This document shows positions 2,472 to 2,548 of a stretch of DNA of 4,260 nucleotides, piece by piece; the first letter of the stretch is position 1, and every line of letters starts with the position of its first letter. A model generated the notes under the pieces. The model was not told where the DNA came from, did not search any database, and saw only the letters and a program-made list of their open reading frames with translations. Made by a program: the position numbers and the translations under genes. Source of the DNA: a virus (taxonomy: Duplodnaviria > Heunggongvirae > Uroviricota > Caudoviricetes); the IMG/VR virus record IMGVR_UViG_2778261504_000021, positions 1-4,260 of that record. The stretch is one strand, 5' to 3'.

Positions 2472-2548
2472 CCGCCACTAGCTCATCAGGAAAGAGCGTC
2501 AACCCTTTAAGTTGAGTGTGCGAGGTTCGAGTCCCCGGTGGCGGTCCA
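2472..2548 (+). tRNA. Atypical tRNA (77 nt), anticodon loop CCUUUAA giving a formal anticodon UUU (Lys-like); possibly a degenerate or specialised tRNA
   Basis: Perfect acceptor stem CCGCCAC/GTGGCGG, D-stem GCTC/GAGC with a 9-nt D-loop, perfect 5-bp anticodon stem TCAAC/GTTGA, T-loop TTCGAGT, discriminator T and CCA. Position 33 is C instead of the near-universal U, and the T-stem has one A-C mismatch. Isotype is uncertain. Confidence 0.55.

Follow-up and report, generated by a model that had tools for sequence, protein, structure and literature searches.

The stretch of DNA described here (the window) comprises positions 1 to 4,260 of the IMG/VR virus record IMGVR_UViG_2778261504_000021 (Caudoviricetes). 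These 4,260 nucleotides (nt) represent the late region of a lambdoid Escherichia coli prophage, in which four transfer RNA (tRNA) genes form a compact array. The second tRNA of this array, at 2472–2548 on the plus strand, carries a UUU anticodon and has C in place of U at position 33. It is very probably a genuine phage-borne gene of the argN family in which the anticodon has been remodelled from UCG to UUU, a shift from arginine to lysine. The gene is an argN member by descent and not by decoding. Concerning its role, the explanation tentatively favoured here is that of a lysine-charged, hypomodified tRNA-Lys that host tRNA-Lys nucleases would miss. The data equally allow a tolerated passenger, which is nearly as likely.

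Structure and origin of the second tRNA

ARAGORN, whose use had been proposed in an earlier note made from the sequence of this DNA, calls a tRNA-Lys(ttt) at 2472–2548 on the plus strand. The Rfam family RF00005 matches 2472–2545 over its full model (positions 1–71 of 71) with 44.4 bits and E = 2.3e-7, where the gathering score is 29 bits. The acceptor stem CCGCCAC/GUGGCGG (2472–2478 with 2538–2544) is entirely Watson-Crick. The anticodon stem UCAAC/GUUGA (2499–2503 with 2511–2515) encloses the loop CCUUUAA (2504–2510, plus strand), which contains C32, C33 (2505), the anticodon UUU (2506–2508), A37 and A38. Within the T arm, CGAGG-UUCGAGU-CCCCG (2521–2537, plus strand), A51 (2523) stands opposite C63 (2535); this is the sole non-standard pair flagged by cmscan, and 20 of the 21 pairs are standard. 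The discriminator base is U73 (2545), followed on the same strand by an encoded CCA (2546–2548). Stem lengths of 7, 4, 5 and 5 bp, together with U8, A14, G18G19 and the T loop UUCGAGU, are all kept, and the D loop, AUCAGGAAA, retains A20. The gene therefore shows the score, the full-length match, the cloverleaf and the conserved bases of a tRNA, with the exception of U33. The structural features listed in the earlier note, namely the acceptor and anticodon stems, the T loop, the CCA, C33 and the A-C mismatch, all hold.

That note had also allowed for a different fold that would restore U33. No alternative register with U33 is possible, however: the anticodon stem cannot be extended because C32 faces A38, and ARAGORN and Infernal agree on a single register. 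Minimum-free-energy folding does not recover the cloverleaf for the second tRNA, for two of its three neighbours or for argN, and is uninformative for unmodified tRNA sequences. Neither loss of the cloverleaf nor a score below the Rfam threshold, either of which would mark a pseudogene, is found in the window allele at 44.4 bits. When considered as a tRNA-Lys, the gene has the UUU anticodon and lacks both A73 and common descent with tRNA-Lys genes.

The gene is widespread in its host. Its 77-nt sequence is matched in 798 of 5426 complete E. coli genomes (about 15%), almost always on the chromosome, and the full four-tRNA array is present in 602 genomes of this set. The identical allele is labelled tRNA-Lys by the annotation pipeline PGAP, and it is also found in the deposited phages vB_EcoS-689R5 and vB_EcoM-606R7, in both of whose records the gene is left unannotated. 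Phage PhiR47_1 carries an allele with two structure-compatible changes (C2U/U46A). In IMG/VR, a T-arm anchor retrieved more than 115 copies of the Lys type, all with C33 and UUU. The gene is thus annotated in hundreds of genomes, yet a literature search on ileZ/argN/argO, prophage tRNA-Lys/Thr/Gly arrays, C33 phage tRNAs and PhiR47 found no paper describing it. Annotations also disagree, in that PGAP reports a tRNA-Lys, the two phage records omit the gene and damaged alleles go unannotated, so that tRNA gene counts in E. coli prophages depend on the tool used.

The relationship to argN is evident from position and sequence. The ileZ-argN pair found in Shiga-toxin (Stx) phages corresponds to the first half of the array, and the second tRNA aligns with argN along its whole length. 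It is identical to argN of Stx phages at 64–65 of 77 positions, compared with 47 of 77 for the host lysT, and it is also unlike tRNA-Lys from phage T5. All argN-family alleles have U73, and both lysT and the T5 tRNA-Lys have A73. By homology, and by its slot after an ileZ-type tRNA, the gene belongs to argN; what it lacks is the arginine anticodon (C35 plus G36/U36). The earlier view of a phage-borne tRNA with atypical features is accordingly retained and can be taken further, as the gene is an anticodon-switched argN tRNA-Arg(UCG) and not a diverged tRNA-Lys.

The commonest argN allele in the first sample is canonical, with the loop CUUCGAA, the T stem CGGGG/CCCCG, the acceptor stem CCGCCAU/AUGGCGG and a score of 55.9 bits. 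The window tRNA differs from this allele at 13 of 77 positions, three of which lie in the loop (U33C, C35U and G36U). Six others are in stems, where they touch four pairs. In two of these pairs both bases are replaced (7-66, U-A to C-G; 30-40, G-C to A-U), pair 27-43 is improved from U·G to U-A, and one pair is broken by G51A. When the 13 Arg/Lys differences are placed at random, one broken pair or fewer results in 3.9% of trials (P = 0.04).

A similar pattern is seen in the family as a whole. In a set of 50 distinct alleles of 77 nt, pairing is kept in 96.7% of pair cells, and pairs 4-69, 7-66, 27-43 and 30-40 have changed on both sides. Pair 51-63 occurs as G-C (21 alleles), G·U (15) or A·C (14). 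In the C33 lineage, represented by more than 100 copies, C33, the anticodon, A37 and A38 are invariant, while position 32 may be C, U or A. At the level of sequence comparison, the covariation and the random-placement test together support a structure maintained by selection.

The order of events can be read from a sister allele, which was obtained in a scan anchored on the Ile tRNA and therefore unbiased with respect to the second tRNA. This allele (locus L378, 4006–4082, minus strand) carries all of the Lys-type changes, with the loop CUUUUAU, which has U33 and U38, and a perfect T stem, CGGGG/CCCCG, with G-C at 51-63. Its acceptor stem, CCGUCAC/GUGACGG, shows that pair 4-69 was compensated inside the Lys clade. 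It scores 53.2 bits with zero non-standard pairs. About 20 complete genomes carry it, as part of an Ile-Lys pair and annotated tRNA-Lys, compared with 798 genomes for the C33 type. Because this canonical allele has U33 and a perfect T stem, U33C and the T-stem mismatch postdate the switch from Arg to Lys. The sequences thus place a canonical tRNA-Lys(UUU) first, as the product of the anticodon switch, and U33C and G51A later. Both changes are fixed in the lineage whose spread accompanied the Ile-Lys-Thr-Gly array. A search for U33 versions with the pattern GAGCGTCAACNDNNNNNGTTGAG gave unrelated or chance matches only; the real U33 allele was missed because it has A26. The gene provides a clear case, within a phage, of a tRNA that has moved to another amino-acid family, and some genomes still hold the canonical intermediate.

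Other members of the family have changed as well. At locus L398, an argN-family allele has the anticodon UCU (loop CUUCUAA) and is followed by argO, also UCU, which represents a second change in the family, at the isoacceptor level. In the argN sub-lineage Stx2a_F349, which scores 43.0 bits, the CGAGG T stem is also present, together with a G3·U70 acceptor stem, and hybrid alleles in PPompW and phage Evi show recombination within the shared T arm. The G3·U70 pair is found in the Stx2a_F349 argN, the PPompW Lys-type and the phage Evi alleles (L001, 1582–1658; L003, 1582–1657; L253, about 479–555). G3·U70 is the main identity element of alanyl-tRNA synthetase, and alanine could be wrongly attached to the tRNAs of these alleles; in the window allele the pair is G3-C70.

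Candidate roles and competing explanations

If the gene serves in nuclease evasion, it would be transcribed within the array, ahead of the lysis genes, and the tRNA would be released by RNase P and 3′ trimming, given the spacers of 1–3 nt and the encoded CCA. Lysyl-tRNA synthetase (LysRS) would then charge it with lysine, and the product would read AAA and AAG. Lysine charging is predicted from the UUU anticodon, which is dominant among the identity elements of LysRS. Recognition by LysRS depends chiefly on the anticodon, and amber suppressors that have the body of tRNA-Arg or of other tRNAs become mischarged with lysine. A tRNA-Lys with a non-host body and anticodon arm may in turn escape the nucleases that deplete host tRNA-Lys(UUU) during infection, following the logic of the T5 tRNA-Lys.

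Several such nucleases act in the anticodon arm. RloC cuts out the wobble nucleotide (position 34). PrrC, RloC and AriB all target the anticodon UUU (PMC2610378, PMC11464382). PrrC cuts tRNA-Lys 3′ of U33 (PMC2610378), and AriB of the PARIS system cuts E. coli tRNA-Lys(UUU) between C40 and A41 (PMC11464382, PMC12409363). The motif U36-A-A-U39 is common to all AriB targets, and U39A alone abolishes cleavage (PMC12409363). The T5 tRNA-Lys resists AriB cleavage and rescues infection (PMC11464382, PMC12409363). In the anticodon arm of the window tRNA (2499–2515), the AriB site has G39 U40 U41 where host lysT has U39 C40 A41, and position 33 is C where lysT has U. The window tRNA is a predicted non-substrate of AriB, because it reads U36 A A G39 U40 U41 and is without UAAU. 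Its C33 lies directly 5′ of the PrrC cut site. The gene therefore shares its anticodon with a targeted host tRNA and has substitutions at the nuclease site, as a nuclease-insensitive tRNA should. The earlier note had raised, as speculation, the replacement of host tRNAs cleaved by anticodon nucleases. This candidate role gains some support from the anticodon of a host tRNA attacked by PrrC, RloC and AriB, from the absence of the UAAU motif and from C33 at the PrrC cut.

A number of observations weigh against nuclease evasion, and the first of these concern decoding. tRNA-Lys(UUU) is heavily dependent on anticodon-loop modifications, and U73 in place of the tRNA-Lys A73 is a sub-optimal feature. 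The E. coli enzymes TsaBCDE form no N6-threonylcarbamoyladenosine at position 37 (t6A37) on a U33C tRNA, so that C33 acts as an anti-determinant (PMC8887486). The window tRNA thus probably lacks t6A37 and is a sub-optimal decoder, in view of this block, of U73 and of the A·C pair in the T stem. In addition, the K. lactis gamma-toxin is indifferent to U33C (PMC2275089), and protection by U33C therefore cannot be assumed. The Thr(UGU) tRNA of the array is identical to a host tRNA that is also cleaved by AriB, and evasion is therefore not what the entire array is built for.

Polymorphism and damaged alleles add to these points. Diversity was compared across 68 loci whose downstream flanks are homologous; leaving out the 22-nt anchor makes this comparison a conservative one. 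Nucleotide diversity (pi) is 0.026 in the second tRNA, 0.007 in its three neighbours and 0.017 in the 292-nt noncoding flank, and the variable sites include 2 singletons out of 10 in the second tRNA, 19 out of 26 in its neighbours and 3 out of 33 in the flank. As both measures resemble the flank, the polymorphism looks neutral and not constrained. In the density of variable sites, the second tRNA is not significantly different from its neighbours or from the flank (P ~0.18), and approximately half of the second-tRNA diversity is due to one three-site haplotype (C4U, U8C, C11U) in a sampling that is clonal. At deep divergence, moreover, compensation is seen. Two common derived alleles fall below the Rfam threshold, namely the U8C haplotype and a 1-nt D-stem deletion found in PPompW prophages of EHEC (enterohaemorrhagic E. 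coli) strains. Both are unannotated by PGAP, and alleles with the anticodon arm deleted also exist. In Ile-anchored arrays, the argN position holds an unrecognisable remnant in 29 of 100 cases, and some argN alleles have A52·C62 or A6·A67 mismatches, so that the family as a whole is labile in prophages. Finally, a scan of one genome per species for the anticodon arm found it in E. coli and Shigella flexneri only, a narrow distribution that fits recent and possibly neutral spread with a useful array.

The polymorphism and the damaged alleles speak for a tolerated passenger, in effect a pseudogene, an explanation that is possible while falling short of probable. The gene would be kept by its position, 1–3 nt from the useful Ile2, Thr and Gly tRNAs, in a tightly packed array that is transferred as one piece. 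Its decoding role would have been lost after the anticodon change, its cloverleaf may serve the neighbours as an RNase P or processing signal, and C33 and A51·C63 would be early steps of decay. Beyond the flank-like diversity and singletons, the frequency of broken alleles (U8C, the D-stem deletion and the anticodon-arm deletions, at intermediate frequency) and the lability of argN, such a passenger is consistent with the lowest Rfam score in the array (44.4 compared with 63.4–73.8 bits), the two phage annotations that omit the gene, the block to t6A37 formation by E. coli enzymes (PMC8887486) and the tight spacers of 1, 2 and 3 nt. If it is correct, the gene illustrates the long persistence of a weakly constrained member within a compact tRNA array.

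However, several features speak against this explanation. The common allele is paired throughout, bar one A·C; four pairs are compensated in the family, one of them inside the Lys clade; and random placement of the differences yields P = 0.04. More than 100 copies are uniform at C33, the anticodon, A37 and A38 while they vary at position 32. Moreover, UUU gives a coherent lysine identity, as LysRS reads the anticodon, and is not a random anticodon. The intact allele is kept in deposited phage isolates, and non-U33 phage tRNAs are C33 in 15 of 15 cases (see below), which suggests a filtered, tolerated state rather than decay. The pseudogene option of the earlier note gains some support: the neutral-looking polymorphism and the two sub-threshold derived alleles speak for it, and the window allele itself, above threshold and with compensated stems, speaks against it. 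A common remnant after the Ile tRNA (L383, L420, L377 and about 25 others) has the sequence CCGCCATTAGCTTATCAGGAAGAGCAGACGACACGATAACAGGGTTGTTGGTGCGGGGGCGGGTCCCCGATGGCG, in which the acceptor and D arm are kept and the anticodon arm and T loop are lost. ARAGORN calls no tRNA on this remnant.

The occurrence of C33 in other phage tRNAs was also surveyed. Among 485 unique phage tRNAs outside the family, 15 lack U33, and all 15 have C and none a purine. This pattern does not reflect detector bias, as ARAGORN calls a tRNA whichever base stands at 33, and C33 looks like a tolerated state in phage tRNAs. The same CCUUUAA loop is found in 2 of 18 unrelated phage tRNA-Lys(UUU) genes, both on large phage contigs (L127, 2194–2267, minus strand; L140, 1805–1878/1885–1959), and at L140 the C33 tRNA-Lys lies directly beside a U33 copy. 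C33 is not significantly enriched in phage tRNA-Lys(UUU), with 2 of 18 compared with 13 of 467 for other anticodons (Fisher P = 0.10). Loci L144, L187 and L232 have two to four C33 tRNAs each (Asn, Ser, Gly, Glu, Arg and Phe). The pattern TTGACCTTTAATCAA, designed for a host-like tRNA-Lys with U33C, gave at least 120 matches; among those listed none lay in a tRNA and all were due to chance, which makes the search uninformative.

These data bear on a further explanation, in which C33 is a recurrent, selected adaptation of phage tRNAs that would alter the base next to a nuclease cut site, block t6A37 and let a phage tRNA-Lys escape recognition or cutting by defences directed at tRNA-Lys. It fits the CCUUUAA loop in two unrelated phage tRNA-Lys genes, the exclusive use of C among non-U33 phage tRNAs and the changes of both Lys lineages at a t6A determinant, and is nevertheless rather unlikely. 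The determinants in question are position 33, which is C in the window type, and position 38, which is U in the L378 allele; A38 is a known t6A37 determinant (PMC9654439). If this explanation holds, a counter-defence tRNA of temperate phages, the product of Arg-to-Lys remodelling, is present in about 15% of E. coli strains.

Ordinary codon supplementation for Lys-rich late proteins is improbable. E. coli uses AAG about 10 times per 1000 codons. In PhiR47_1, AUA, ACA and GGA each occur 7–13 times per 1000 codons, AAA 33–43 times and AAG 14–17 times. Compared with E. coli, AUA, ACA and GGA appear enriched, AAG is somewhat commoner and AAA is about equal. The other three tRNAs of the array fit codon supply, and the Thr and Gly genes are copies of host genes. 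For lysine, however, AAA and AAG are already read by an abundant host tRNA, with at least five genes in K-12 (five tRNA-Lys genes in one cluster alone), to which one copy that is not host-like and is predicted to be hypomodified would add little. Codon supplementation was therefore rejected as the main explanation for the Lys tRNA, given host-like AAA usage and abundant host tRNA-Lys. Codon supply explains the Ile, Thr and Gly tRNAs and not the Lys tRNA.

A non-decoding or modulating RNA is a comparably poor candidate. It might act as an uncuttable decoy that titrates a tRNA-Lys nuclease, or as a hypomodified tRNA-Lys adjusting −1 frameshifting where the tail-chaperone G/GT genes have the slippery site ...AAAAG. 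The decoy is suggested by a loop that differs from that of host tRNA-Lys only at 33 (CCUUUAA compared with CUUUUAA), bordering the PrrC cut (PMC2610378), and non-productive complexes of phage tRNAs with immune effectors have been raised as a possibility for AriB (PMC12409363). A modulating RNA is consistent with the changes at t6A determinants in both Lys lineages (C33 and U38), and the G gene of PhiR47_1 ends ...CCG GAA AAG UCC UGA, with a Lys codon at the likely slip site. However, both versions would be conjectural at every step. A decoy would require high expression, lambdoid G/GT slippage works with host tRNA-Lys alone, and the polymorphism argues against strong selection of any kind.

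Lastly, a sequencing or assembly error at position 33, which the earlier note had considered, or a chance cloverleaf can be dismissed, as the identical allele recurs in many independent complete genomes and in induced or isolated phages, C33 is found in every one of the IMG/VR copies of this type, and the Rfam match has E = 2.3e-7.

The tRNA array and its surroundings

The array begins with a tRNA with anticodon CAU (2395–2470, plus strand; ARAGORN; Rfam, 72.5 bits), an ileX/ileZ-like tRNA-Ile2 that PGAP labels tRNA-Ile. It is identical to ileZ of Stx phages and matches K-12 ileX at 68 of 76 positions. The second tRNA (2472–2548, plus strand; ARAGORN and Rfam), with its argN-family body, UUU anticodon and PGAP label of tRNA-Lys, occupies 77 nt including the CCA. 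It is followed by Thr(UGU) (2551–2626, plus strand; ARAGORN; Rfam, 73.8 bits), which is identical to host thrU at 76 of 76 positions, and by Gly(UCC) (2630–2704, plus strand; ARAGORN; Rfam, 63.4 bits), which matches host glyT at 74 of 75. The four genes are separated by spacers of 1, 2 and 3 nt, and CCA is encoded in each.

In K-12, thrU and glyT flank tyrU in the operon thrU-tyrU-glyT (L248), and the Thr and Gly tRNAs of the array are copies of both. Tyr-Thr-Gly arrays are also present in Salmonella records of the phage collection. Together, these copies and arrays suggest that the Thr-Gly module was captured from the host operon.

Upstream of the array, the window starts with the end of a DUF968 gene, followed by a Q antiterminator (156–518; PF06530), an open reading frame (ORF) on the reverse strand (602–1048) and a small ORF (1321–1518). 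An ORF of 237 amino acids with an AraC-family helix-turn-helix (1653–2366; PF00165/PF12833) lies directly upstream of the tRNA genes. It is found in 726 of 5426 E. coli genomes, often in 2–4 copies, including O103 and other EHEC strains, and we take it to resemble the prophage AraC-like regulators PatE and Psr. The upstream flank differs in most other copies of the tRNA array. A sigma-70-like promoter match (2356–2384, plus strand; TTGATT, 17-nt spacer, TATTAT; 9 of 12 consensus positions) ends 10 nt 5′ of the first tRNA. It is a consensus match only, and as the number of such matches in the window is near the shuffled expectation, it constitutes weak evidence for a promoter.

Downstream of the array, the noncoding stretch from the tRNA-Gly to the terminator is filled by perfect inverted repeats with arms of 11, 14 and 9 nt (2711–2756, 2764–2836 and 2835–2889), in which Rfam gives no match. 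In argN-type arrays, the equivalent region carries the small RNAs STnc100 and AgvB (locus L124). A strong hairpin resembling an intrinsic terminator (hairpin 2912–2927; 2912–2937 including the T run; plus strand), with the sequence GCCCGC-TTTT-GCGGGC followed by a T run, lies between the array and the holin gene. After it come a P21-type holin, a DUF1327 gene and a lysozyme, and then the beginning of an ORF that can be aligned with the PhiR47_1 gene annotated as endopeptidase Rz. PhiR47_1 (L374), which carries the same tRNA array, also has a PanA/PanT toxin-antitoxin pair at its left end (308–1352).

Comparison with known tRNA systems

The closest known counterparts of the gene are the argN genes of Stx and other lambdoid phages, which occur in the order ileZ-argN-argO. 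Like argN, the window tRNA comes directly after the same Ile(CAU) tRNA. The two have C1-G72, U73, the D arm and the T loop in common, and one argN sub-lineage also has the A51·C63 mismatch. However, the anticodon is UUU and not UCG, which removes the determinants C35 and G36 of arginyl-tRNA synthetase, position 33 is C and not U, and pairs 7-66, 27-43 and 30-40 are altered with compensation. In addition, the window tRNA is followed by host-like Thr and Gly tRNAs, whereas argN is followed by argO.

The change of family itself resembles alloacceptor tRNA remolding, or anticodon shift, in which a tRNA passes from one isoacceptor family to another through anticodon substitutions (PMC4783518, PMC3923123). 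Such remolding is known mainly from mitochondrial and eukaryotic nuclear genomes, whereas the present case lies in a bacteriophage array. It required two anticodon substitutions, C35U and G36U, and would have yielded a product with the lysine-decoding function predicted above.

Natural C33 tRNAs include the initiator tRNA-Met of multicellular eukaryotes and yeast tRNA-Leu(GAG) (PMC8887486, PMC13492127), which likewise have C for U33 in an otherwise normal loop. The yeast tRNA-Leu(GAG) works almost normally with its natural C33 (PMC13492127). These tRNAs are eukaryotic and cellular, whereas in E. coli C33 blocks t6A37, which is relevant for a reader of ANN codons.

The tRNA pseudogenes of defective prophages show a reduced model score, a stem mismatch, the loss of a near-invariant base and many damaged alleles, all of which are found here. 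The window allele differs from them in its score above the Rfam threshold, its 20 of 21 standard pairs, its compensatory changes, its invariant anticodon loop and its presence in intact form in phage isolates.

The system most similar to the tentatively favoured role in nuclease evasion is the T5 tRNA-Lys(UUU), which counters PARIS. Both are phage tRNAs that have the anticodon of a host tRNA cleaved by AriB and are altered at positions 39–41. However, the T5 gene is a recognisable tRNA-Lys, with a GGGU... acceptor, A73 and U33, whereas the window tRNA has an argN-family body with U73 and C33. The virulent phage T5 has 23 tRNAs, and the array described here, with four, belongs to a temperate phage. 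Replacement of host tRNAs destroyed by nucleases has been shown mainly in virulent phages such as T5, and the present gene is a candidate for the same function in temperate phages, with the resistance and rescue demonstrated for T5 being predicted here.

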